Assembly (NCBI GenBank): GCA_049301455.1
Contig: JBAQKY010000020.1
Coordinates: 10,184-74,183, forward strand
Direction: 5' to 3'
Source: Microgenomates group bacterium
GTDB taxonomy: Bacteria > Patescibacteriota > Microgenomatia > UBA8517
DNA length: 64,000 bases
Of the stretch, positions 37,341 through 50,118 are shown one piece after another. Within the stretch, counting starts at the first letter, position 1; every line of letters starts with the position of its first letter. The notes beneath the pieces were generated by a model that was not told the origin of the DNA, searched no databases, and saw only the letters and a list, made by a program, of their open reading frames with translations. The position numbers were made by a program, and so were the translations under genes.

Positions 37341-38711
37341 ATGGAAAAACAAGATTTCGAAAAAATTTGGAAAGATACATTAGAAACACTACGTATTTCA
37401 GTCTCTGATGCTGCTTTTAAAACATATCTCTCTCACACACACCTAATTGACCTTAAAGAGATAGGGGATAGAATAATTGCAGAAGTAGGATGTGATTCAA
37501 TTTTTACAAAACAGCAAATTGAACAAAGATATTCAGGATTATTTCAAGATACTCTCACAAAACAATTAGAAAAAAATGTGGATGTAACATTTATAGTAAA
37601 ATCTATAACTCGTACAATTCCCACTACAACTGAAAAAATTACTCCACTATTTGACACTCCAAAAATAAACACTGAAGAAGTTGAAGCTGCAGTTAAAAGA
37701 GCGAATCTAAGAATGCTTTTTACCTTTGATAAATTTGCCGTTTCAGGAAGCAATCAAATGGCTCATGCAGCAGCTCAAGCAGTTGCTGACAACCCAGGTG
37801 TTTCATATAATCCATTATTTATATATGGTGGGGTAGGAGTTGGAAAAACTCACTTAATGCATGCAGTGGGACACAACATGATACTTAAAAATGTCAATTC
37901 AAAGATATTAGCCTGTACTGCAGAGGATTTTACAAATGATATTGTTGATGGAATCAGGAATAAAACAACAGCAGAAGTTAGAAAAAAATATAGAAAACTT
38001 GACGCTTTGTTTATTGACGATATCCAATTTATAGCTGGTAAAGACACTGCACAAGAAGAGTTCTTTCACACTTTTAATGCTGTAACATCTGCTGGAGGAC
38101 AAGTAATACTAACTTCTGACAAACCACCAACTGAAATATCAAAACTTGAAGCCAGACTTAAAACTAGATTCCAAGCAGGTTTAATTGTTGATGTTTCACC
38201 ACCTGACTTTGAGTTACGATCAGCTATTGTTCAAATTAAATCTGAAGAAAGGGGAATAAACCTTTCAAATGAAATGGTTGCCCTTGTTGCAGGGAATATT
38301 GATTCAGCCAGAGGAATACAAGGTTTTTTAGTTAAACTGTTTACAGAAGTCAATTTTAACAAAAGGGAAGTTACCACAGAACTTATAGAATCGCTGCTTG
38401 GAAAAGCAAATAGTGCAGATGAAGTAAAAGTTAAAATAAGTCCAGACGATTTGATTAATAAAGTTGCAAAATACTATTCATTAGGTAAAAGACAATTATT
38501 AGGAGATTCTAGAGCATTACCTGTCGTTCGCCCAAGACAAATACTTATGTACCTTCTTCGAAAACAAGTAGATCTACCTTTCCAAGAAGTAGGAAGGATT
38601 GTTGGGCGTGATCATTCAACAGTAATGAACGCTGTGGAAAAGATAACACAATTACTCTCAACCAATGTGGATATTCAGGCGGATATCATGGGGATAAAAA
38701 AAACTCTTTGA
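37341..38711 (+). CDS. dnaA: chromosomal replication initiator DnaA
   Basis: AAA+ Walker A LFIYGGVGVGKTHLMHAVGH, box VII, and a C-terminal DNA-binding domain. Confidence 0.95.
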   Translation: MEKQDFEKIWKDTLETLRISVSDAAFKTYLSHTHLIDLKEIGDRIIAEVGCDSIFTKQQIEQRYSGLFQDTLTKQLEKNVDVTFIVKSITRTIPTTTEKITPLFDTPKINTEEVEAAVKRANLRMLFTFDKFAVSGSNQMAHAAAQAVADNPGVSYNPLFIYGGVGVGKTHLMHAVGHNMILKNVNSKILACTAEDFTNDIVDGIRNKTTAEVRKKYRKLDALFIDDIQFIAGKDTAQEEFFHTFNAVTSAGGQVILTSDKPPTEISKLEARLKTRFQAGLIVDVSPPDFELRSAIVQIKSEERGINLSNEMVALVAGNIDSARGIQGFLVKLFTEVNFNKREVTTELIESLLGKANSADEVKVKISPDDLINKVAKYYSLGKRQLLGDSRALPVVRPRQILMYLLRKQVDLPFQEVGRIVGRDHSTVMNAVEKITQLLSTNVDIQADIMGIKKTL

Positions 38712-38735
38712 GTATAACTTTTAGAACTTCTCCAC

Positions 38736-38821
38736 TTATCCCCAATTATTAACAGGTTATCCACAGTTTTATCCACCACTTATCCCCTGCCTGAGCTATA
38801 CTTGTTATCATCTTATCCACC
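38736..38821. promoter_or_regulatory. cluster of five DnaA boxes in the dnaA-dnaN spacer (oriC core)
   Basis: TTATCCCCA 38736-38744, TTATCCACA 38757-38765, TTATCCACC 38769-38777, TTATCCCCT 38780-38788, TTATCCACC 38813-38821. All in the same orientation with 11-12 bp spacing. Confidence 0.65.
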
Positions 38822-38893
38822 ATCCCTACTACTAGTACTACTATTTAAAATATGATATTAATACATTAACGACATTTGTCTAAAAACATATAT

Positions 38894-40000
38894 ATGAAAT
38901 TAACCGTTCTTCAAGAAAACCTAAAAAATGCAGTTAGTCTCACATCACATTTTATTTCACTTAAAGCGCAGCTTCCAATATTATCAAATATTCTTTTAAA
39001 GACAGACAAATCAAGATTAATATTACAAGCGACAAACCTCGAAACTTCAATCTCAACTTCTATTGGGGCAAAAATCGAAACTGAAGGAGAAATCACCATT
39101 AATGGAAAAGTTTTTAATGATTTAATTTCAAATTTGTCTTCAGGTCAAATTGAATTAGAAGTAGAAAAAGAAAGTATAAAAATAACGGCAGGGACATTTA
39201 AATCAAATGTTTTAGGTTCTAATACTTCTGACTTCCCTACTCTTCCAGACAATGTCGGTAAAGATTCTTTTAAGTTGAATACAAAAGAATTTACTAATGC
39301 ATTATCTAAAACACTCTTTGCAGTATCTTCAGACGAGACCAGGCCTATTCTAACAGGTGTCTTGTTTGTTTTTAAAGGTAATACACTCTACCTTGTTTCT
39401 ACTGATGGTTTTAGGCTTACAGAAATACAATTAAAAACTAAAATTGAAATTCCAGATTTAAAAATTATAGTTCCAAAAACAATTCTAAATGAGGTTTCAA
39501 AACTTACAGACAGTGAAGATTTAGAAGTTTCTTTTGATAAAGATAATAATCAAATAATATTTAAGATTGAAGACACAATTCTATCTTCAAGAATAATTGA
39601 AGGAGAATTTCCTGAATATCAAAAAATAATACCTACTTCATCAATTTGTAATTTAACTGTAGATAAACAGGATTTAGAAAAAGCAATTAAGCTCGCTTCA
39701 GTTTTTGCAAGAGACTCAGGTAATATCGTCAGATTTACTGTCAAAGAAAATTACTTAAAAGTGAAAGCAGAAAGTTCTAACGCTGGTAATCAAGAAATGG
39801 AGATTGAAGTAAAAACAGAAGATTTAAAGCAAGAAGAGATAGAAATAATGTTTAATTTTAGATTCTTAGAAGAATTTTTAAAAATTGTAGTTTCTGATGA
39901 AGTTCAAATACAAATATCTGATAACAACAAAGCTTCAAAATTTCTAGACTCAAAAACTTCAAATTTACTTCATATAATTATGCCTATAAAAACAACTTAA
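38894..40000 (+). CDS. dnaN: DNA polymerase III beta sliding clamp
   Basis: MKLTVLQENLKNAV...: three-domain clamp (about 368 aa). The ORF-track start at 38876 (MSKNIYMKLTV) is probably 6 codons too far upstream. Confidence 0.9.
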   Translation: MKLTVLQENLKNAVSLTSHFISLKAQLPILSNILLKTDKSRLILQATNLETSISTSIGAKIETEGEITINGKVFNDLISNLSSGQIELEVEKESIKITAGTFKSNVLGSNTSDFPTLPDNVGKDSFKLNTKEFTNALSKTLFAVSSDETRPILTGVLFVFKGNTLYLVSTDGFRLTEIQLKTKIEIPDLKIIVPKTILNEVSKLTDSEDLEVSFDKDNNQIIFKIEDTILSSRIIEGEFPEYQKIIPTSSICNLTVDKQDLEKAIKLASVFARDSGNIVRFTVKENYLKVKAESSNAGNQEMEIEVKTEDLKQEEIEIMFNFRFLEEFLKIVVSDEVQIQISDNNKASKFLDSKTSNLLHIIMPIKTT

Positions 40001-40082: not shown

Positions 40083-40667
40083 TTAATGTGAAATTTGTCC
40101 TTCGAAAGGAGTTTCTTGGTAACTTTGTGCATATTTACTCATAAATGTTTCTATATCCGTAGGTTCAAAATACCAGATTTCAAGTATTGTTCCGTCTACG
40201 TGTCCCAAATAAGCAATTCCATTATCTGTATAGATATATAGATTAAACGAACTATCTGATGTTTTAGGATATAAAATATTTGAAGGGTTACCATAGACAT
40301 TTTTTATGTCATTATCTGTTTTGTTATCTTCTTGATTTACAATCTCTCGAATAAAACCTATTTTATTATTAGACACTTCTATTTGATTGTTTCGATAGAT
40401 GTTTGATGATGGATAGTCTCTTATCTCAACATTCCCGCTAGAAGTTGCTGATAATTGAGTTCCAAATGTTTGATTTATTCTATCCTCTTCAAATAATAGG
40501 CCTGGTCTAACTCCTTCTATGTTAGCAATATTTGTGTCAGTAACTTTAATTTCCTTAATATTGTTTTGGTTGCTTGTTGTTGCATATACAAATAATAAAA
40601 AAAATATAATTGTGATAATAAGTAGAAATAACCATTTATTTTTAATGAAATTAATTATTTTTATCAT
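40083..40667 (-). CDS. hypothetical secreted/membrane-anchored protein (last gene of the T4SS-like block)
   Basis: 194 aa with an N-terminal signal anchor. No motif. Confidence 0.45.
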   Translation of the reverse strand: MIKIINFIKNKWLFLLIITIIFFLLFVYATTSNQNNIKEIKVTDTNIANIEGVRPGLLFEEDRINQTFGTQLSATSSGNVEIRDYPSSNIYRNNQIEVSNNKIGFIREIVNQEDNKTDNDIKNVYGNPSNILYPKTSDSSFNLYIYTDNGIAYLGHVDGTILEIWYFEPTDIETFMSKYAQSYQETPFEGQISH

Positions 40668-40679
40668 ATAAATATTTTA

Positions 40680-43394
40680 CTACTTTGTCATAAAACCTTC
40701 AGACCATATAAAATTCTTAGGATATAGACTTTGATAATTTGTAGCACAAGTGTCCCACGATGGGCTACTGTTTACTTGTAATGCAGCCGCTTCTGCCATT
40801 GCTTCTTGCTGCGCTTCTACAGAAACACCAACTGTTGCAGGATATGTACATAATCCGTTACCTTTAAGTTCCCATGCTGATCCGGATGCAAGATACCCGA
40901 CAAAATGTGAAGCGTTTATTCTTTGTATGTGGTGTGTTAATTCATGAGTAATCATGAATGCAGCATCTAGTTCATCTCTATTGCTTTTAAATGGTCCATC
41001 GTTGAAGTATACATCGCAACCATCTTTGTATTTGTTGTGTATATGCCAAGCATATAAATCTGGGTCTATTTCTGAAGGTTTGTAACATAAGTTTATTGTT
41101 TCGTTCTTTGGGCAAGCTTTTGCGGTAAAACCTTGGTACTGAGATAATATTCCTAGTCCAGCTTCAGCTTTTGATCTAATACTTGAAGGCCATGCATCTG
41201 CGTTATTTGATACAACAGCACAATTTGCAGGACATTCACCAATACAAACTGAGGCGGAACCTGAAGTTGTCACTTCTGTGCCATCTTCGGCTGTTGCAGT
41301 AAACGTAATCGAATCGTAGATTAATGAATCTGAATATTCTGAATCATAAATACCTGTAAAACTAAAACTATGAGGTTCGTTAGGTGAAATTGACTCGTTA
41401 GTTATTTCTGGAAATACTTCTCTCGGACACGGAGGTGCATCCACTTTATCTTTTTTGATAACATTACATTCTGAATCTGTGATGTTCACATTAGTTAAAT
41501 TTCCTTTTAACGCTTTAACTGTGACAACGTAAATAACAGTTTGGTTTGAGTTTGAATTATCAAGTTTTGTTGGATTTGCAGTTTTTGTTACTAACATATA
41601 CGGATTATCGGCGCCCCCGTCTAGTGATGAAGAATATGGGCTTGGTGGGACAATATAGGCACCACTATTGATTATAAAAAGAACAAAGGTAGTAAGTACT
41701 GGTACCACAATAAATAATATAATCATTGGTCCTGCAAGTGAAATAATAATTCTTGACCAAACAAATCTAATTAAATTTAAAGTTCCAAACACTGCGGCGG
41801 TTGTAACACCAACACCAATTGTACCTGCTATCACAACACTTGCTAAGCCTAAAGCTATAAGGGGTCCAAATAACGGAAGTGCTCCAAAAAAAGCCATACC
41901 TCCAAAAATTAATGCAGCTTTATCTGGATTTTTCTTTATCCATTGCTTAATTTTAGATAATAGCTCGGTTCCTAACCAAACTAGTGCTGTTTGTAGTGGA
42001 TTTAGACCCCCTAAAACCGTAGCCGCAATTTCAGAAGTAACACCCTTTTTAACAGCTGAGGCCATCATCGTTCCCGAGGCTTTAGATAAAAAGTTATCTG
42101 AAATTAAAGTTAGAACAGAACCTGCTAAACCTGTTTGTATTGTTTGTTCTGCTAAAGCAGTAGTTGGGTTATTATTTTCTAATACAGTGGTTACCCAAGG
42201 ATTAGCTTCAAATTCTGTAAAAACAAGAGCCTTTGGTCTTTGTAGTCCAAATTTTTCAATAATAGCATTTATTTTGTCAACTTCGCTTTCTGGTTTTTTT
42301 GACTTTGTAATATTAGCTTCTTCCTTCTCTGTGAAGGAAACAATTCTTGAGTAAATAACAGAATCTGGCCTTTCATTCTCTTCAAATTCATTTAATAATC
42401 TTCCTTGATTTATTAAAAGGCTTCTGTAATTTGTGTTTATTGCCTCAATGCTTATTTCATAACTTGACCCTGGTTGTTGATTTGCAGTTAAAATGACGAC
42501 TAAGTTTTCTGGTCCATAGACTGTTTCAGCAACAGAGTTCCCATACATTTGTGCTACCGTTTGTCTCCCAAGAAGGAATAAGGATCTTTCGTTTAAAGAT
42601 AATGCCACAGATCCCCTTTTGGCCGTTTCTATTAATTCGTTTTCTAAAGTATTTTCAAATAAATCTGTGTGTCCTACTGCGTCTAATATTTTTGAATTTA
42701 TATTATGTTCTATTGTGGGATTGTTGGCTTGAGAGAGAATTCCAACAGCTACCGACCTTGCAAATATTTGCTTTTCTTTTTCATTCTGGTTTTTGAATTG
42801 TTCATCAGAAAGTTGGTCTTTGATTTTTTCAGCTAATTCATCAACATTTTCAGATTTTAGCTTCTCATGTAGAACCTTTTGGTTATCATTTAATTCTGGG
42901 GTTTCAATTTTTCCAACAGTTGCATAAATTTTTTTGCCTTTTAATTTTTCTTCGGCTAGTTTTACTCTCTCTGTTTCTTGTTGAATTCTCTTTTGTTCTT
43001 CATTAAAAATTTCTTTTTTTCTATCAACAGATCTCGCGACATCTCTTTGTGCTGTATCTCTAGCCTCTTGCGATTGAGCTTTTCTTTTCTCAAAAGATTC
43101 GATTTTACTTTCTAAATCACCACCTGTTGTTCCGTTTGGTCCAATAGGTGCTTCGTGTTCTGCATTTATCTCTAACTTAATTGTTTCTATCCAGCTTTCA
43201 ATTAATAATCCTAAATTTTCTCCTGAAGCTGATTCTGGAACATTAAACCTTCTCAAATATTTTCTTGCTTCATCAATTGGAACTTCTTTGTTTGCTTCGT
43301 GAGCCTTAATTATTTGCAAAGCTTCCAACAAATTTGCTAACGGTTCATTTTTAGGAGCTGGAATTTCTAGTATTTTTTTTAGTTCATCGTCCAT
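40680..43394 (-). CDS. giant multidomain membrane protein: N-terminal coiled-coil, central polytopic segment, C-terminal Cys-rich extracytoplasmic zincin-like (HExxH, DUF4157-like) domain
   Basis: 904 aa. Lys/Glu-rich N-terminus with coiled coils, about 6 TM helices in aa 430-580, and a C-terminus with more than 10 Cys and FMITHELTHHIQR (HExxH), preceded by YFNDGPF as in DUF4157 zincins. Confidence 0.5.
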   Translation of the reverse strand: MDDELKKILEIPAPKNEPLANLLEALQIIKAHEANKEVPIDEARKYLRRFNVPESASGENLGLLIESWIETIKLEINAEHEAPIGPNGTTGGDLESKIESFEKRKAQSQEARDTAQRDVARSVDRKKEIFNEEQKRIQQETERVKLAEEKLKGKKIYATVGKIETPELNDNQKVLHEKLKSENVDELAEKIKDQLSDEQFKNQNEKEKQIFARSVAVGILSQANNPTIEHNINSKILDAVGHTDLFENTLENELIETAKRGSVALSLNERSLFLLGRQTVAQMYGNSVAETVYGPENLVVILTANQQPGSSYEISIEAINTNYRSLLINQGRLLNEFEENERPDSVIYSRIVSFTEKEEANITKSKKPESEVDKINAIIEKFGLQRPKALVFTEFEANPWVTTVLENNNPTTALAEQTIQTGLAGSVLTLISDNFLSKASGTMMASAVKKGVTSEIAATVLGGLNPLQTALVWLGTELLSKIKQWIKKNPDKAALIFGGMAFFGALPLFGPLIALGLASVVIAGTIGVGVTTAAVFGTLNLIRFVWSRIIISLAGPMIILFIVVPVLTTFVLFIINSGAYIVPPSPYSSSLDGGADNPYMLVTKTANPTKLDNSNSNQTVIYVVTVKALKGNLTNVNITDSECNVIKKDKVDAPPCPREVFPEITNESISPNEPHSFSFTGIYDSEYSDSLIYDSITFTATAEDGTEVTTSGSASVCIGECPANCAVVSNNADAWPSSIRSKAEAGLGILSQYQGFTAKACPKNETINLCYKPSEIDPDLYAWHIHNKYKDGCDVYFNDGPFKSNRDELDAAFMITHELTHHIQRINASHFVGYLASGSAWELKGNGLCTYPATVGVSVEAQQEAMAEAAALQVNSSPSWDTCATNYQSLYPKNFIWSEGFMTK

Positions 43395-43397
43395 GTT

Positions 43398-45254
43398 TTA
43401 TTCTTGTCTATTCCACGCTTTAGTGTTTGGCATTGTTGATGCTGGATTGTCTTGTGGTTTTGTATTAATTAATTGATGTTCTGCTTCACTAGCAACAATT
43501 CTAATAGGAGCATGGTGTGGTCCTGCAAAGAATATTCCCTCCCCTACATTTGCAGCCATTAGAAGTTGTTTTTCTCCTTGTGAAAGGTAAAAGATCTCCC
43601 CTAGTTTGTCTATTGCTGTTGGTGATTGCTTCAAAAGTAGCCTTAACGCAGAGTTTGTAACAATGGCTTTACCAATATCTTGGCCAAGGAAGTCTTCGAC
43701 GTCCTGAGTGATAGTTGTTAAGCCTAGATAGTACTTTCTGGCTCTTTTTACAACAGACCAAAGGAATTGTGCAGTATCTGGATATTTCATCATTTGCCAT
43801 GCCTCTTCAACAATTAAGATTCTTCTTTTTATATCTCTTTTGACTCTGGTCCAGATATAGTCAAGAATCATAAACATGATAATTGGGCGGATTGCATCTT
43901 GAATATCTTTAACAGAAAAAACAGTAAACGGATTATTTAGATCTATGTTTGTTTGTTTATCAAAAATACCTTGGAATGAACCTCTAATAAACTTTTCAAT
44001 ACGTGAGGCAAGATCAAGTGCTTCTGGAACTTCCATACCAATTAATGTTTTATAAAGATCCTCCATTAATGGTGGTTCTTTTGTTTGTGTTACTGGGTCA
44101 TTAGTTATTCCTTTTGCTTTATAAGTCATAATTAAAGCCCTATCAAGCATAGCTTCTTGTGTTGGAGTAATTTGGCCCATTATAACTTTCATCAAAGAAT
44201 GAAGTGATAATATCTTTAGTCCTAGTTGGTTCTCACCTTCTTCTTGTATTTGTGTTAAATCGAATGGATTGATTTTTGAAGGGCTATTATAAGAGAAAGC
44301 GATGTATTGACCGCCTACAGCATCACAAAGGGCTTTATACTCTGCTTCAGGGTCTAGAATGATAACTTCTGAGCCGATCATTAACGACCTAACTGCTTCT
44401 GTTTTGACAAAATAACTTTTACCAGCACCTGAAGTAGCAAAGACTGTCATGTTTCCATTTTCCAAACTAAATCTATCAAAAATAATAAATGATTCGTTTT
44501 GTGAGTTTATGCCATACAAAATTCCTTTGTCTGAAGAAAGCTCAGCCGATGTAAATGGAAAAGTAGTAGCTACTGAGGTGGTATCCATATTTCTAGTGAT
44601 TGAAAGCCTGTCTTGCCCATATGGGGCTGTTGAAAGAAAACCCATTCGTTGATCAAGTGTTGCATTTTTAGCAACAATAAGAAGCGATCCAAGTGTTGAC
44701 ATTACCTGCCTCGAAACGTTATTAAGCTCATCAACTGTGTTTGCTGGAATAGTTATGTAAAAAGAGAACTCGTAATATCTTTCAATGCCTTTAACAAGTT
44801 GTTCTTGTAATGCCCTTGCATCTTCGAGCTTGGCGGTAGTTGATGGGTCAACAATCCTTCCTCTTTGGATATCTGTTGATAGTTCAGCCTCCATTTCGGC
44901 AATTTTGCGACGAAGATCATCAAGAACTGATTTACCAGCTACAGGATAAATATAAAAACTCATATCGAGTGAGGAGTTAAAATTAACAACAGGTTCAAGC
45001 CAACCAGGTGCAACAAAACGTGGGTAACCTGCGATAAATATTGTTCTGTAGTAAACGTTGTTAACTTTTACATAATCAAAATCAACTTCGACATGGTCAG
45101 ATGAAATCACATCGTGTAGTGTCATTTCTCCGCTTGCAACAATTAAGTTAGGATTTGTTATCTTTGGCTTTACTGATTCAGTGTATTTTGCATCCCCTGT
45201 CTCGAGTGGCTTGTTTTGGTCAGTTGCCTGTGTTGTGTTTGTATTGTTTTGCAT
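43398..45254 (-). CDS. VirB4/TrbE/CagE-family type IV secretion ATPase (ATPase domain)
   Basis: Walker A FATSGAGKSYF, Walker B plus DEAW motif (RILIVEEAWQMM), no TM, 618 aa. Confidence 0.7.
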   Translation of the reverse strand: MQNNTNTTQATDQNKPLETGDAKYTESVKPKITNPNLIVASGEMTLHDVISSDHVEVDFDYVKVNNVYYRTIFIAGYPRFVAPGWLEPVVNFNSSLDMSFYIYPVAGKSVLDDLRRKIAEMEAELSTDIQRGRIVDPSTTAKLEDARALQEQLVKGIERYYEFSFYITIPANTVDELNNVSRQVMSTLGSLLIVAKNATLDQRMGFLSTAPYGQDRLSITRNMDTTSVATTFPFTSAELSSDKGILYGINSQNESFIIFDRFSLENGNMTVFATSGAGKSYFVKTEAVRSLMIGSEVIILDPEAEYKALCDAVGGQYIAFSYNSPSKINPFDLTQIQEEGENQLGLKILSLHSLMKVIMGQITPTQEAMLDRALIMTYKAKGITNDPVTQTKEPPLMEDLYKTLIGMEVPEALDLASRIEKFIRGSFQGIFDKQTNIDLNNPFTVFSVKDIQDAIRPIIMFMILDYIWTRVKRDIKRRILIVEEAWQMMKYPDTAQFLWSVVKRARKYYLGLTTITQDVEDFLGQDIGKAIVTNSALRLLLKQSPTAIDKLGEIFYLSQGEKQLLMAANVGEGIFFAGPHHAPIRIVASEAEHQLINTKPQDNPASTMPNTKAWNRQE

Positions 45255-45266
45255 GTCTTTTTTTTG

Positions 45267-46133
45267 TTAAATATCTTTCTTAACTGCTGGTGGTTCAGGA
45301 TTATTTATCTGATAATAGAGATCAACTAGTTCACTTGTGGTTAGCTGTTTTAATTTTAAACCTAATCTACTAGCCTGTCGTATTAAATGGTCTCGTTTTG
45401 GAAACAATGTCACTTTTGCTTTTTTAACAACATAGTCTTTTGGAAATGGCAAAGGTCCTCTTTTTAGTGCTGTCATTGCTGATTTTGTTACCCCTAATTC
45501 TAAAGAGTTAAAAGGAATTACAATGAAAAATCTTTTACCCAAGACTGTTTTTTTCTTAATAGACTCTGTTATGAAATGTCTGTAGTCATCAGTTATAGCT
45601 GCAAGTTTAGGATTTGTGATTTTTTTAGATGCTTCATCAAAAAATCTTATATATCCAGAGATATCTTTTCTTTGAGTTCTGACCATGATTTGAATTGAAA
45701 AAGAAAGTGAATTAATTAGCGCGGCATATGCTGCTACTACTGCACCCTGTTCTTTTTCAGATAATAATCCAAAGTTTAAGGATGATGTTTCGAGAACAAT
45801 TGCTGCACCACCATCTTTATATAAAACCACATCATCAACAATGTCTGATATTGGTAGATGGTCTTGTGTGGTTGAAACAAGTGGCATATCAGGTGTGCCA
45901 AAATATGGTATTTTTGATACTAACTTTGCAAGGTTTTCTTTCCAGTTAGGCGATATCCCGTTGGTTTTTGGGGTGGTTGTGGTAGCATTTTCCATTTTTG
46001 GATTTTGGGTTGTTGATGTGGCTGCTTGTTCCGGCGTTACTTGAACAGAAACAGACTCTTTTTTATTTTCAACAATTGGAAGATTTGCTGGAACTGTTTG
46101 GTTGTTGTTTTGTAAATTTTGTGTATTGTCCAT
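45267..46133 (-). CDS. VirB4 N-terminal-domain-like protein (probable split N-domain of the downstream ATPase)
   Basis: 288 aa. HLPISDIVDDVVLYKDGGAAIVLETSSLNFGLLSEKEQ resembles the VirB4 N-domain opening (start of mating-pair-formation ATPases). Combined size with the next gene is about 906 aa, near full-length VirB4. Confidence 0.4.
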   Translation of the reverse strand: MDNTQNLQNNNQTVPANLPIVENKKESVSVQVTPEQAATSTTQNPKMENATTTTPKTNGISPNWKENLAKLVSKIPYFGTPDMPLVSTTQDHLPISDIVDDVVLYKDGGAAIVLETSSLNFGLLSEKEQGAVVAAYAALINSLSFSIQIMVRTQRKDISGYIRFFDEASKKITNPKLAAITDDYRHFITESIKKKTVLGKRFFIVIPFNSLELGVTKSAMTALKRGPLPFPKDYVVKKAKVTLFPKRDHLIRQASRLGLKLKQLTTSELVDLYYQINNPEPPAVKKDI

Positions 46134-46160
46134 ATTTATATTTTATATTAGCAATTTCAT

Positions 46161-47210
46161 TTATATTTTAGCTCCTTTAATTGCGATAGGTGGAATCATT
46201 TCTCCCACAGCATCAAACGAAACAGGTTCAAATTTAAAGCCATCTTTTTCAGTTGTTACCTCGTATTTTCCATTAGCAAGTGGGGTAACAATAATGAAAT
46301 GCCCGGCCTTATTACTTTTTAATGCTCTAACAGGTCTACCTGCAGAATCTTTTATTTCTAGAATTGCCCCCTCAACTATTTTTCGATCCGCGTCCATTAC
46401 TTGACCTACAATTGTGTTTATTGCAATTGGAGGTGATGGTGGAGCTGCATCTACTGAAAATTCTACAGTGCTTGATGTAATTTCTTTCTCTTCTATCTTT
46501 TGACCGTCAATATTTGTTATCTCAGCTTGCGGTGTGTTTAGTGGTGCAGACTCCTGAACAACTAACTTTGGTGCAGATTTTGTGATTACAGTTGGAACTT
46601 GTTGTGGAACTGTTAGTGGAGCAGGAGTAGGTGGTATTGCTTTATTTGGTTCAGGGTTTTGTGTTTGGATAGTTGTTGGTGACACAAAAGGTGCAGTTGG
46701 GGCAGTAGGATTATTAATATGTTGTGTTTGAACGACAGAGGTTTGTACTGGTGTGCTTGCAGGAGTATTTGAAACGTTCCATAGTCCTCCAATTTTTGAA
46801 AGGAATGACTTTTCAGCATCCTCTAAATTGGTAGTGTTTTTGTCTGTAGTTTGACTGTTTGGTGTGGGAATTGTTGTGATTGTAGGAACAACAGCTTCTT
46901 CTGTGTAGAAAACTGGTGGTTTATCTGTTTTTTTCCAAGTATATAAAGTAGGGGAATAAATACTTCTGAAAAAAGCAATAATCCATTTTTCTAATGGGCG
47001 TTCTTGAAACGGTAAAAAGGCCATTGCTGCACCCATACCTGCAAAAAACAAAATCAAAGGCCATTTAATGATTGGGTGGAGTGGGGTGGAATAGAAAATT
47101 AAAGAAATAATAACACCACCAGCAACTTGAAAAAATTGTTTTAGAGTCATATCTCCTACTAATTTGAATTGATATGAACTTATCTGTTGTGGTATTGGGT
47201 GTTGCTCCAT
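46161..47210 (-). CDS. PrgI/VirB3-like small-membrane N-terminus fused to Pro/Thr-rich linker and C-terminal carboxypeptidase-regulatory-like (Ig-fold) domain
   Basis: N-terminus IPQQISSYQFKLVGDMTLKQFFQVAGGVIISLIFY with 2 TM helices matches the PrgI family opening. C-terminus GQVMDADRKIVEGAILEIKDSAGRPVRALKSNKAGHFIIVTPLANGKYEVTTEKDGF is CarboxypepD_reg-like. Confidence 0.45.
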   Translation of the reverse strand: MEQHPIPQQISSYQFKLVGDMTLKQFFQVAGGVIISLIFYSTPLHPIIKWPLILFFAGMGAAMAFLPFQERPLEKWIIAFFRSIYSPTLYTWKKTDKPPVFYTEEAVVPTITTIPTPNSQTTDKNTTNLEDAEKSFLSKIGGLWNVSNTPASTPVQTSVVQTQHINNPTAPTAPFVSPTTIQTQNPEPNKAIPPTPAPLTVPQQVPTVITKSAPKLVVQESAPLNTPQAEITNIDGQKIEEKEITSSTVEFSVDAAPPSPPIAINTIVGQVMDADRKIVEGAILEIKDSAGRPVRALKSNKAGHFIIVTPLANGKYEVTTEKDGFKFEPVSFDAVGEMIPPIAIKGAKI

Positions 47211-47311
47211 TAATTAATCGTACTATGTGAAGGTTTTGGCGCAACTGTTGGCTTATTTTCACAAGGGTTGGAAATGAAATAAATATCATAAAAATGATAT
47301 AATTCACGTAT

Positions 47312-49501
47312 ATGGCAGAAGGTAGACCTGGTGTCGATGGCAAAAGTATAAATACTGATGTTGCAAGTTTTACTCCAAGAGATGGCGTGATTTCTGTTGG
47401 GGCTAAAGACGCTGTAACAGGAGCTCCAGTACAAGCTGAAGCTCTTTCTTCTGGTGATTCAGATAGATTCAGGAAGCTTTCTGAAACAAAGGAAGTAAAA
47501 TCAAAAAGCAACCCTGAAAACCCAAACGCGACCAAGAAAAATGGAGAGTATAAACAAACCAACAATAAACCTGAAACTAAACATACTCAAAAAGAGGCTC
47601 CTATGAAAAGCGAATATTCTAGTGATAATAATAGTAAAGTTGATGAAAAGAAAGAGAAAGGTGTTAAATCAGAAGAAGACTTTGGGTCTATGGATTTTTC
47701 TGAACTCAATAGTTTACGAAGGAATTTTACGATAGAGGGGACGAGGAGACAAAACGCTGAAGACGAGTTTAACCGGAGGGTCAAAAATTTTACAAATTTG
47801 AGAGAAGGCGAAATTGTTGGAGAGATAAGACATACATATTTAAATTTAGTAAGAAATACCAATTGGGATGGTTTGTTTGGAGCAATCACTACTGCCGCAA
47901 CAGAGCTTGAATCCTCTTTTGCTAGATCAGTAGAAGGGCAAAAACACCCCGAACTTAGAGGGGTGATTACAGAAGTGCTTCGAGTAGAAAGGGCACAGCT
48001 TTTACTAGAAGGAATGAGAAGGCGCGGTATTAGAGATACTAACACTCAATGGTTAACAACGCATGGGTATACGCCAACTGAAATATCTAGATTTAGAGAG
48101 CTATCACTTCCTATTAATGCGGTATTGGACCTTGAAAGAACTCCTATTAATACTTTGGCAAATATGGTTGGACAAGACCTTGTTGTTAATGTACCTCAGC
48201 CATCATCCCTTTCTGCTGCAGAGATGGAAAATGCTGTTCAAAGAGGAACGGAAAAAGCAATAAATGCCCCAAGCATAGAAGCAGAAAGACAAGCTTTTAG
48301 AACAGCTGAGTATCAGATGGTAAGTGTTCCTCCTGTAGATTCTAGAACTAAATTTTTACTAACTGCAGAAAATCGTGAAATATTGATTTGGGACGCTAGG
48401 GCAAAACTCTCAAGAGCCTGTGCAATTAAAATGTCTGGAGGAATGAATGAAATTGCAAACAACCCTGAAGCTAAGACATTTACAAACGAGCAAGAGCAAT
48501 TGTTACTGTCAGTCCCAGGAGTACTGGAAGCGATCTCTTTAGAGGCATATCTAATAGTTAATGGTGCTGAGATGAACGCTGCCCTTAAGAACAATGGACC
48601 GGAATTACCAGAAACGATATTTGATATTACAGAAGAAGGAGCTCTTTCTAGGATGAGGCAAGCTAAGGTCGATTGGTTGATGACATATAGAAATTTAAAT
48701 GAAGACCAAGCAAAAGATGCTGAAGCAATATCGAGGAATTTTGTTTATTTAAACGATTTAGTTGAAGACTTTGATTCTAAGGCTGATAAAAACGATAAAC
48801 GGACAAAAGAAGATCATAAATATATTCCGAACTCGATGCCAAAATTAAAATCGGTAGCAGTTCATCAGACAATGCATTTACAAGAGAGACTTGAAGCAAA
48901 AAACAAAGGTGATTCAAACTGGTCTGCGTTAGGAGCATACGCAAACAGCCACCCAAAACAAATAGAAGGTCTATTGCCTCTTAATTTATTTAAAAGCGCG
49001 TTGGAAATTGGTAGAGATCAAAATTCAATAGATCATACTAGAAAGATTGGACCTCCTGACAATGAAGGAGTATCACTACTTGAAGTGTTTGTAGGAAATG
49101 GGGTTAAACTAGCCGTTGATCCTAGGAATATTAATTTAGTGATGCCTGCGATCTCACATCCAAATGCTAGAGAAGGTAGGCTTAGTGGTTATTGCGCAGT
49201 AACTTTAAGTGCTGCTGCAACTGTTTTAGGCTCACTTAGTAAGCCTAACGAAATTGTTAATTCTAAAAACTGGGCTCCGTTGGGGGATGCATTTAGAGAT
49301 TTAGATGTTGATCCGAAATATAGGCAGAACATTGCAATTGCAATTGTCGGGGTTAACACCTCTCCGTTTGCACTTGGTTTTGGACCCGCAATAGGTTGGG
49401 GTAAGTGGTGGGAATATAGAAGAAAAGAAATTGAAAGATCTGACCCCAACTTTTTCAGTTGGTCTTGGGGAAAGGCATTCCGCAAGATATTTGGGAAATA
49501 A
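47312..49501 (+). CDS. hypothetical soluble 729-aa protein, compositionally distinct (higher GC, Arg/Ala/Glu-rich), no TM or signal peptide
   Basis: The only plus-strand gene inside the minus-strand T4SS-like block; divergent from the PrgI-like gene. No ATPase or relaxase motifs found. Confidence 0.5.
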   Translation: MAEGRPGVDGKSINTDVASFTPRDGVISVGAKDAVTGAPVQAEALSSGDSDRFRKLSETKEVKSKSNPENPNATKKNGEYKQTNNKPETKHTQKEAPMKSEYSSDNNSKVDEKKEKGVKSEEDFGSMDFSELNSLRRNFTIEGTRRQNAEDEFNRRVKNFTNLREGEIVGEIRHTYLNLVRNTNWDGLFGAITTAATELESSFARSVEGQKHPELRGVITEVLRVERAQLLLEGMRRRGIRDTNTQWLTTHGYTPTEISRFRELSLPINAVLDLERTPINTLANMVGQDLVVNVPQPSSLSAAEMENAVQRGTEKAINAPSIEAERQAFRTAEYQMVSVPPVDSRTKFLLTAENREILIWDARAKLSRACAIKMSGGMNEIANNPEAKTFTNEQEQLLLSVPGVLEAISLEAYLIVNGAEMNAALKNNGPELPETIFDITEEGALSRMRQAKVDWLMTYRNLNEDQAKDAEAISRNFVYLNDLVEDFDSKADKNDKRTKEDHKYIPNSMPKLKSVAVHQTMHLQERLEAKNKGDSNWSALGAYANSHPKQIEGLLPLNLFKSALEIGRDQNSIDHTRKIGPPDNEGVSLLEVFVGNGVKLAVDPRNINLVMPAISHPNAREGRLSGYCAVTLSAAATVLGSLSKPNEIVNSKNWAPLGDAFRDLDVDPKYRQNIAIAIVGVNTSPFALGFGPAIGWGKWWEYRRKEIERSDPNFFSWSWGKAFRKIFGK

Positions 49502-49517
49502 AAATAGGTATTTACTA

Positions 49518-50111
49518 TTAAAAAATAAAAGGGAACATTTTTTTAGTTGAGTTTTTGTAAATTTGATATTCTTTACCATAATATTTCATCAATAACTCTT
49601 CTTCTTTGTTAATGTGATTGTTCATAATCAAAAACAAAAAAATAAACATCGGCAAAAATAGCCAACTGTTTACAATCAACTCATATCCCACACATTGTAA
49701 AATAATTGACATGTAAATTGGATGTCTTGAATATTTAAAGATTCCGTCTTTAACCAATTTTTGGTTATTTTTGATTCTATAGTAAGCTAAGGCCGTCCAA
49801 GAATACCCCAGATCCTTTAATGCTTTTATTGAAATATAAACCCCATTGAGAACAAAAACATATCCAATTGTTATGACTACGGTTTGAGTGTATTTGCTGT
49901 TAAATATTGGTAGTAAAGTAAAAAAAAATTGAAAAGTGAATAATATAATTATTGTACAGAGAATTATAAAAACAATAAGCATCTGTTTTGATTTATATTC
50001 TCCTTCAATCAATGTATCTTTGCTGTTGTAACTTGGTTGTTTTCTCCAAATAACAGCTTGAGAAAGGATGACTAAAACTGCAGGTATAATATATAAAGAG
50101 TTTTCTAGCAT
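49518..50111 (-). CDS. isoprenylcysteine carboxyl methyltransferase (ICMT/PEMT-like) family membrane methyltransferase
   Basis: KDGIFKYSRHPIYMSIILQCVGYELIVNSW (RHPxY...E signature), 4-5 TM helices. Confidence 0.65.
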   Translation of the reverse strand: MLENSLYIIPAVLVILSQAVIWRKQPSYNSKDTLIEGEYKSKQMLIVFIILCTIIILFTFQFFFTLLPIFNSKYTQTVVITIGYVFVLNGVYISIKALKDLGYSWTALAYYRIKNNQKLVKDGIFKYSRHPIYMSIILQCVGYELIVNSWLFLPMFIFLFLIMNNHINKEEELLMKYYGKEYQIYKNSTKKMFPFIF

Positions 50112-50118
50112 ATATTAA

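Follow-up and report, generated by a model that had tools for sequence, protein, structure and literature searches.

The oriC-proximal chromosomal type IV secretion system (T4SS) locus of Microgenomates-type Patescibacteria has a constant single-gene slot, which separates the ATPase-side operon from the channel/pilin-side operon and runs on the opposite strand, and the genes that fill it are exchanged between strains. One allele type of this slot, a gene for a protein of 729 residues, is described here from a 64,000-nucleotide stretch of the assembly of a Microgenomates group bacterium (GCA_049301455.1, contig JBAQKY010000020.1, positions 10,184 to 74,183, forward strand), hereafter the window, to whose first letter all unlabelled coordinates refer. 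The locus runs dnaA, dnaN, then a hydrolase-like gene, virB4, trsD and prgI, all minus-strand; next comes the slot, which is plus-strand, and after it a virB6-like gene and a pilin array, again minus-strand. The position of the slot is constant and its content hypervariable: there are at least six sequence clusters, and the family to which the window protein belongs has no detectable similarity to the others. To judge from the sequences, it always encodes one large (~600-1200 residues), soluble, acidic, Arg/Glu/Lys-rich protein with no Sec signal and with its own leaderless promoter. Such a protein is a candidate interchangeable substrate of the T4SS or a candidate host-interaction protein, a reading that we regard as quite possible, if short of probable.

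The slot open reading frame (ORF) is a real gene, since it has homologues and is under purifying selection. An earlier note on this DNA had placed it at 47211-49501; the end and the length of 729 residues stand, and the start does not, because 47211 is the first base of the intergenic spacer and the ATG lies at 47312. The same note had described it as the sole plus-strand gene of its neighbourhood and as divergent from a PrgI-like gene across a 101-bp spacer; the former holds for 40083-54669 (14.6 kb, with 17 minus-strand ORFs), and the latter is borne out by the sequence and by Pfam. In every genomic context fetched for a family member, down to 23-28% identity, the gene lies on the opposite strand between the prgI-like and VirB6-like genes, and the convergent slot and VirB6/pilin-side genes end 1-16 nt apart. 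Because it holds the same position in every related locus examined, the gene is not a random passenger. Homologues that match only the N-terminal domain are positional orthologues too (for example in locus L010), and profile-profile comparison with the family (probability 99.4%, E 5e-22), which extends into the first half of the core, indicates that these are family members. Identity to the window copy is 70-92% for VirB4, 60-83% for TrsD, 45-73% for PrgI, 43-99% for the pilins, 27-68% for the VirB6-like protein and 23-54% for the slot gene, which is therefore the fastest-evolving and most divergent gene of the locus. The contig of L014 (CAZSGY010000032.1), which has the whole Microgenomates-type dnaA-T4SS-pilin locus, bears the label 'uncultured Gammaproteobacteria bacterium', probably through a binning error.

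Slot content was surveyed in an unbiased sample of 80 metagenome loci fetched by VirB4 alone, at 70-98% identity to the window VirB4. A divergent ORF of at least 500 residues is present in 39/40 loci with at least 3 kb of sequence upstream of prgI, and an ORF of 595-1232 residues lies between prgI and the VirB6-like gene in all loci that have both (34/34). The exception, L017 (5755-8144), has only minus-strand fragments of 51-106 residues and no VirB6-like gene within 10 kb; its slot has probably decayed, or the locus has been rearranged. About one third of the 34 ORFs (11-12) are detectable members of the window protein's family, and the other 22 form five BLAST clusters, some of which are interrelated (UA-UE, 94.7%). 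No hidden Markov model match links the five clusters to the family, even with filters off, and the hhalign probability is at most 2%. Cluster proteins have no Pfam match (ten tested) and no transmembrane (TM) segment; all are acidic and rich in Arg, Glu and Lys, the last 30 residues are positively charged in most, and many start with M-[ASPT]-[ED] followed by a low-complexity stretch. In several loci the interval from the slot gene to prgI also holds an extra ORF of 170-290 residues, in the orientation of prgI (L054, 2406-3173; L025, L030, L033, L057, L060, L073 and others; none in the window). These ORFs may encode allele-specific partners, for example chaperone-like or immunity-like proteins.

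Slot genes are exchanged between strains, by precise replacement between loci that are otherwise 99.8% identical. This identity extends over 13.6 kb in L053 and L054, from prgI through virB4 to dnaA, and the two loci are again 97.5% identical over 122 nt within the VirB6-like gene; the ~3 kb in between have no similarity. The slot of L053 holds a 906-residue protein of cluster UD, and that of L054 a 690-residue family member. The right boundary of the swap lies approximately at the prgI start codon, and the left boundary lies inside the VirB6-like gene, so that the last 55-70 residues of its product were swapped as well. The VirB6-like tail of L054 is 64% identical to that of L032, a family-type locus, and 18% identical to that of L053. 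Over all loci, VirB6-tail similarity is weakly or marginally associated with slot type (0.222 against 0.203). Slot type is patchy on the VirB4 tree, the nearest VirB4 neighbour sharing it in 14/38 loci compared with 9.9 +/- 3.1 by permutation (P = 0.125). Strain-level replacement with conserved flanks, patchy distribution and absence of known domains resemble the behaviour of defence islands, and would suit a recombination hotspot between conserved operons that gathers strain-specific genes (for example defence or anti-defence genes) unrelated to secretion. We consider this improbable, as the near-universal occupancy of the slot (39/40) is always by a large divergent ORF; solubility, acidity and richness in Arg/Glu are common to all slot proteins examined, many of which have the M-[ASPT]-[ED] start and a promoter of their own; the window protein has no PADLOC match; and the cassette boundaries fall inside T4SS genes.

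The window slot gene is itself a recombinant, with the promoter, disordered N-terminus and N-terminal domain (N-domain) from one lineage and the C-terminal core (C-core), VirB6-like gene and pilin 1 from another. Nucleotide identity between the window and L004, which encodes the homologue P0003, is 83-92% from the spacer to about 48166, ~50% through the C-core, VirB6-like gene and pilin 1, and again 80-89% in pilins 2-5. Protein identity switches partner at the inter-domain linker, with which the recombination breakpoint coincides: the N-terminal third is 80-92% identical to P0003 until ~residue 285, and the C-core is ~70% identical to a second homologue, P0002, and ~33% identical to P0003. 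The VirB6-like protein (68%) and pilin 1 (75%) of the window are likewise closest to the counterparts of P0002. This evidence of mosaicism comes from metagenome assemblies, P0003 being present on two contigs. In comparison with L004, codons 1-124 have a synonymous divergence (dS) of 0.10 and a ratio of non-synonymous to synonymous divergence (dN/dS) of 0.82, and dS is 0.68 in the next domain; this indicates that codons 1-124 are a second, very recent recombination tract under weak constraint. With dN/dS at 0.137 in the N-domain and 0.046 in the C-core (alleles 88% identical), strong purifying selection acts on the slot protein within an allele type. The locus is finely mosaic beyond the slot as well. 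Between the window and L004 or L005, pilin 2 (52065-52412) is 95-99% identical (99% at the protein level for L004), with dN/dS 0.016, and in the same comparison the adjoining pilin 1 (51740-52015) is only 48-59% and the VirB6-like protein (50119-51660) 47-52% identical.

NCBI lists a protein of the same sequence (100% identity) as hypothetical, from a 'Microgenomates group bacterium' metagenome-assembled genome (MAG). The window protein has no match in Pfam-A, NCBIfam, PHROGs, PADLOC or PDB sequences. A word-indexed search of 5.8 billion proteins retrieved just three relatives, at 44-54% identity, and a homologue search with a 40-sequence profile gave the same four proteins and no others. When 1.84 billion cluster representatives were searched exhaustively with a profile, 87 clusters had E <= 1e-3, 22 of them E <= 1e-30, and the family comprises at least 87 clusters at 50% identity. 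Among GTDB genomes the family alignment detected no more than three loci, and named members derive from Woesebacteria or 'Patescibacteria group' MAGs. Searches of plasmids (72,556, by tblastn) and phages found no relatives. None of 40 family members scanned has a meaningful Pfam domain, relaxed Pfam scans at E <= 10 gave no recurring weak match in the family, and the family profile found nothing in the PDB. The earlier note had seen no signal peptide or TM segment and no ATPase or relaxase motif, and this was confirmed: the Kyte-Doolittle mean over 19 residues peaks at 1.7, in a stretch with two Glu, and the protein has no Walker A motif ([AG]xxxxGK[ST]), no P-loop or relaxase match in Pfam or NCBIfam, and an all-alpha model. 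No HExxH motif is present, and Pfam scans of the 40 family members gave no SLT, lysozyme, CHAP or peptidase match of the kind expected of a VirB1/PrgK-like hydrolase. VirB8 is recognizable by an N-terminal TM helix and an NTF2-like alpha+beta domain, and VirB5 by a Sec signal and a helical bundle of ~220 residues; with no TM segment or signal peptide, no beta domain and no fold match, the slot protein is neither VirB8/PrgL-like nor VirB5-like.

A first AlphaFold model, built from four sequences, had a predicted local distance difference test (pLDDT) score of 37 and was not usable; it was replaced by a model from an 89-sequence alignment. For residues 120-729 (610 structured residues) the latter has pLDDT 90.5 and a predicted template-modelling score of 0.70, and is wholly helical with no beta domain. 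Residues 1-124, which begin M-A-E as in most slot proteins and vary in length and sequence in the family alignment, had pLDDT 22-31 in the weak four-sequence model and are probably disordered. N-domain helices span model positions 10-166 (residues 129-285) at pLDDT 85-97, the linker falls below 50 at model positions 171-179, and the core is mostly at 91-98, with one disordered loop at residues 569-582. The core has invariant charged and aromatic residues at E333, W360, R363, K373, N476, E485, D488, H522, R526 and K530. Foldseek comparison of the model gave nothing below E 0.7 in the PDB (TM-score <= 0.13) and nothing below E 0.2 in the viral set BFVD, and the protein is thus predicted to adopt an all-alpha fold without a match among the solved or viral structures searched. 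Taken together, profiles and Foldseek turned up no housekeeping enzyme or other known family or fold. The last 30 residues have a net charge of +4 (family mean +2.7), and most members end in ..[KR][KR]Y.PNFF[KDE]. A conserved MHPQER motif was considered as Fic- or HD-like and rejected, as neither fold nor profile supports it; a 293-residue ORF upstream of the L006 orthologue was rejected as a split-off N-terminus of the family.

The earlier note had singled out the gene as a compositional outlier of separate evolutionary origin. It does stand out in GC (0.389 compared with an ORF mean of 0.335, sd 0.030; rank 2/44, z 1.8), in Arg content (6.6%, the highest among 44 ORFs) and in tetranucleotide distance (top 2% of equal-sized windows), and does not in GC at third codon positions (GC3; 0.268, rank 8/44, z ~1) or in synonymous codon usage (rank 20/31), both of which are ordinary. 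The GC excess is even along the gene and falls on codon positions 1 and 2, and therefore reflects amino-acid content, not foreign DNA. Other genes of the T4SS locus are also GC-rich for the window (PrgI-like, 0.376; VirB4, 0.368; a gene for an 888-residue protein termed p888, 0.395, rank 1/44). For 37 same-slot genes of other loci the GC shift averages +0.004 (sd 0.022) and is not systematic; a GC shift was rejected as a general property of slot genes. A separate origin survives in the form of allele or cassette exchange among related lineages, and not as import of compositionally foreign DNA. The gene could in principle be a horizontally acquired, compositionally distinct passenger unrelated to the apparatus, as its GC rank, tetranucleotide distance and homologues confined to a small set of metagenomic proteins would suggest. 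This idea, also put forward in the earlier note, is contradicted by synteny and must be deemed extremely improbable: orthologues occupy the same position across the clade, no relatives occur on plasmids or phages, the promoter has the genome's own architecture, and the ordinary GC3 and codon usage are not those of a genomic island.

The -10 box of the slot gene lies 8 nt from the ATG, which implies a leaderless or near-leaderless mRNA. Shine-Dalgarno sites are nearly absent from window genes, and the first genes of operons usually have TGnTATAAT 6-9 nt ahead of the ATG; this shared spacing indicates that leaderless expression is normal in the genome, and the promoter was rejected as a special feature of the slot gene. 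Across six aligned loci with slot proteins at only 28-54% identity, there is no change in the TAC..GTGAA and TTTTCACAA blocks (together an inverted repeat), in the TGnTAnAAT box 7-9 nt ahead of the ATG, or in the ATG itself. The spacer motifs are kept in L053 (8040-8215) and L054 (3146-3319) despite unrelated slot proteins, which argues against the slot protein as the sequence-specific binder of the repeat. The repeat is probably an operator for another regulator of the T4SS operons, as far as conservation can tell; with a single copy in the window, it was rejected as a regulon marker. That the 729-residue protein is a regulator had been among the earlier note's suggestions; control of the T4SS operons by it, transcriptional or post-transcriptional, would agree with the divergent arrangement, the conserved repeat in the 101-bp region and the tight convergence with the VirB6/pilin operon (1-16 nt between ends). 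It is nevertheless disfavoured, and we rate it very unlikely, because none of the 40 family members has a helix-turn-helix or other DNA-binding domain and the cis motif persists beside unrelated slot proteins.

Among the suggestions of the earlier note, a substrate of the apparatus is most favoured by the evidence, though not for the GC-based reason given there. It is favoured because identical machinery accepts unrelated slot proteins, because the gene is the fastest evolving of its locus yet constrained within an allele type, and because the protein has no Sec signal and belongs to a system without a known substrate. Other substrate-like features of the window protein are the lack of a TM segment, the disordered N-terminus, the basic C-tail and the all-alpha structure without a known fold. 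In the proposed scheme, the slot protein would be made in the cytoplasm, recognized at the VirB4/VirB6 platform through its basic C-terminal tail, its disordered N-terminal region or both, and exported via the channel or pilus towards a host cell, where it would act as an effector or host-contact protein. The VirB6-like C-tail would move with the slot gene as part of the swapped cassette, and alleles would be exchanged under diversifying or host-specific selection. More broadly, the Patescibacteria T4SS might export the slot proteins, as its substrates, to the host without a coupling protein. These proteins would be of novel fold and interchangeable, and their allele type, moving as one cassette with the VirB6-like C-tail and in some cases pilin 1, would set host specificity; this larger proposal we offer tentatively, as one about which doubt is in order.

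Several observations weigh against a substrate role. No recognized T4SS signal or effector domain was found, and the basic C-tail is weak and not common to the slot clusters; other clusters are mostly positively charged at the C-terminus too, but have different termini, and no signal has been defined for T4SSs of monoderms or the Candidate Phyla Radiation (CPR). No type IV coupling protein is encoded nearby as a substrate receptor. Strict positional conservation fits a machine subunit equally well, the swapped VirB6-like tail could equally be a co-adapted structural interface, and the unrelated-looking slot clusters might share one fold. Furthermore, the contrast between L053 and L054 comes from metagenome assemblies, and L054 starts just 122 nt into the VirB6-like gene.

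Alternatively, the slot protein could stay in the cytoplasm as an accessory or adaptor subunit, bound to the VirB6-like C-tail and to the VirB4/TrsD/PrgI platform and not itself secreted. This is consistent with a position that does not vary even between deeply diverged loci, the conserved promoter region that the gene has in common with the divergent ATPase-side operon, strong purifying selection and the joint swapping of the VirB6-like tail and the slot gene; the tempo of the N-domain also equals that of the ATPase side, and the tempo of the C-core that of the VirB6-like gene and pilin 1. Even so, the same VirB4, TrsD, PrgI and hydrolase-like proteins (the 13.6 kb at 99.8%) work with dissimilar slot proteins, the slot type is patchy on the VirB4 tree, the fastest evolution in the locus would be unusual for a core subunit, and the overall association between VirB6 tail and slot type is weak. 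An accessory subunit is accordingly a serious but rather unlikely alternative to a substrate.

Features of the window are collected in Table 1. The PrgI-like neighbour scores just below the Pfam PrgI cut-off of 27 (E 9.7e-6, 26.5 bits) and is conserved across all loci. Pfam TraC-like matches in related loci, together with the published locus description (PMC12102498), underlie the assignment of the TrsD-like gene. The VirB4 genes of L001 (4461-8144) and L010 (327-3818) are each interrupted by a LAGLIDADG homing-endonuclease intein, with products of 1227 and 1163 residues; the window VirB4 is intein-free. The 904-residue protein has no Pfam match; it has a long charged N-terminal part, central hydrophobic segments and a C-terminal HExxH motif (HELTHH), the L010 gene at its position has a weak CHAP match, and it is probably a cell-wall-hydrolase or remodelling (VirB1/PrgK-like) component of the system. 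The methyltransferase gene has a counterpart among L001-L014 only in L003, which has the window's C-core allele type; it is absent from L001 and L004-L006. The VirB6-like protein, likewise without a Pfam match, is always encoded by the next machine gene after the slot. The first pilin (51740-52015) matches Pfam T4SS_pilin (3.8e-9), as do pilins in related loci. Elsewhere p888 lies between the VirB6-like gene and pilin 1, and in the window it lies ~4 kb beyond the pilin array, a displacement that indicates a rearranged T4SS locus. A SpoIID-domain gene flanks the pilin array in all related loci; in the window this ORF (54600-56381, plus strand, TTG start as listed) shares its first 70 nt with the beginning of the eighth pilin gene, and its true start is probably further downstream. 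Genes for dnaA and dnaN lie directly upstream of the locus at 37341-40000, with LeuRS and GroEL nearby.

Table 1 Features of the T4SS locus and of the slot gene in the window.
Feature	Coordinates (strand)	Description	Basis
904-residue protein	40680-43394 (-)	Syntenic in related loci	Translation
VirB4-type ATPase	43398-45254 (-)	Also matches AAA_10 and DUF87	Pfam P-loop_TraG 1.2e-33
TrsD/TraC-like protein	45267-46133 (-)	Resembles N-terminal part of VirB4	NCBIfam TrsD E 6e-5, VirB4_plasma 2.7e-6
PrgI/VirB3-like membrane protein	46161-47210 (-)	CarboxypepD_reg domain; divergent neighbour, first gene of ATPase-side operon	Pfam
Divergent intergenic region	47211-47311 (.)	101 bp	Sequence, promoter scan
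Inverted repeat	47226-47263	TGTGAA-N26-TTCACA; single occurrence in window	
Extended -10 box	TG 47295-47296, TATAAT 47298-47303	Ends 8 nt before ATG	
Slot gene	47312-49501 (+)	Soluble, acidic, predicted all-alpha protein of unannotated family	ORF, homologues, AlphaFold model
Codons 1-124	47312-47683 (+)	Low-complexity, K/E/S/N/P/G-rich, predicted disordered	Composition
Codons 125-289	47684-48178 (+)	N-terminal helical domain; conserved F129, W185-D186, G217	
Codons 290-299	48179-48208 (+)	Inter-domain linker, recombination breakpoint	
Codons 300-715	48209-49456 (+)	C-terminal core defining the family; ~20 helices; ends in P712-x-F714	
Codons 716-729	49457-49498 (+)	Short basic C-terminal extension past conserved PNFF end	
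PEMT/ICMT-family membrane methyltransferase	49518-50111 (-)	Inserted between slot gene and VirB6-like gene	Pfam
513-residue polytopic membrane protein (VirB6-like)	50119-51660 (-)	VirB6 position; convergent with slot gene	Translation
Eight VirB2-like T4SS pilin genes	51740-54669 (-)	Array	Translations; PMC12102498
888-residue protein (p888)	58706-61372 (-)	No Pfam match	tblastn synteny, blastp

The locus agrees with the T4SS described from Patescibacteria (CPR), which is related to MPF_FATA (Quinonero-Coronel et al. 2025, PMC12102498; Wang et al. 2023, PMC10633639) and is chromosomal, oriC-proximal and relaxase-less, lying beside dnaA/dnaN in Microgenomatia (PMC12102498). The window likewise encodes VirB4, a TrsD-like protein, a PrgI/VirB3-like protein, a protein at the VirB6 position and an array of eight VirB2-like pilins on the chromosome with dnaA/dnaN adjoining, and neither Pfam and NCBIfam scans nor locus synteny revealed a relaxase or coupling-protein gene in its T4SS locus. 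The type of locus is thus already known. The published accounts differ from ours in that the large divergent gene between prgI and the VirB6-like gene is not assigned there, genes without homology being left unannotated (PMC12102498, PMC10633639); the 'effector cluster' of TM7x is the pilin array (PMC12592800, PMC12102498). In the literature searched we found no description of the slot, its allele classes or their exchange between strains, and relative to that literature these are new.

Systems in which a secreted or accessory protein is encoded with its machine offer partial parallels. CagA of Helicobacter pylori is a large protein with no Sec signal that is encoded in a T4SS locus, had a unique fold when first solved, owes its allelic diversity to recombination, and requires a chaperone and a VirD4-type receptor. 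The slot protein is similar in size, in the lack of a Sec signal, in being encoded in the locus, in its unmatched fold and in its recombinational alleles, by analogy and not by sequence comparison; unlike for CagA, no chaperone or VirD4-type receptor homologue was seen at the window locus, and translocation of the slot protein is a proposal. The tip and translocator proteins of type III secretion systems are also encoded with their machine, alpha-helical and without a Sec signal, and have a role in host contact that would drive diversification. Here the likeness is one of logic only, with a different secretion system, no homology and no hydrophobic hairpin in the slot protein (maximum 19-residue Kyte-Doolittle mean 1.7). 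Soluble, helical, lineage-specific accessory proteins are known from T4SSs as well: CagZ binds Cag-beta, and DotY/DotZ belong to the Dot/Icm coupling complex. The slot protein resembles these in being alpha-helical, machine-encoded and lineage-specific, and would be cytoplasmic like them if it were an accessory subunit, but CagZ and DotY/DotZ partner a VirD4-type ATPase, which is absent from the window locus. Nor is strain-to-strain swapping known for CagZ or DotY/DotZ.

According to reviews, the function of the Patescibacteria T4SS is completely unknown and no substrate has been identified (PMC10633639, PMC11665869, PMC12857230; also PMC12102498), yet the only patescibacterium amenable to genetics requires the system for epibiotic growth (PMC10633639, PMC11665869, PMC12857230). 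Whatever the function of the slot protein, the analysis defines an unannotated protein family, a natural allele-swap pair (L053/L054) that can be used for interaction modelling, and a conserved cis element in the divergent promoter. Fixed in position, interchangeable between strains, without a known fold and wedged between the ATPase-side and channel/pilin-side operons, the slot gene is a concrete candidate for what this T4SS handles, or for what tunes its host specificity.

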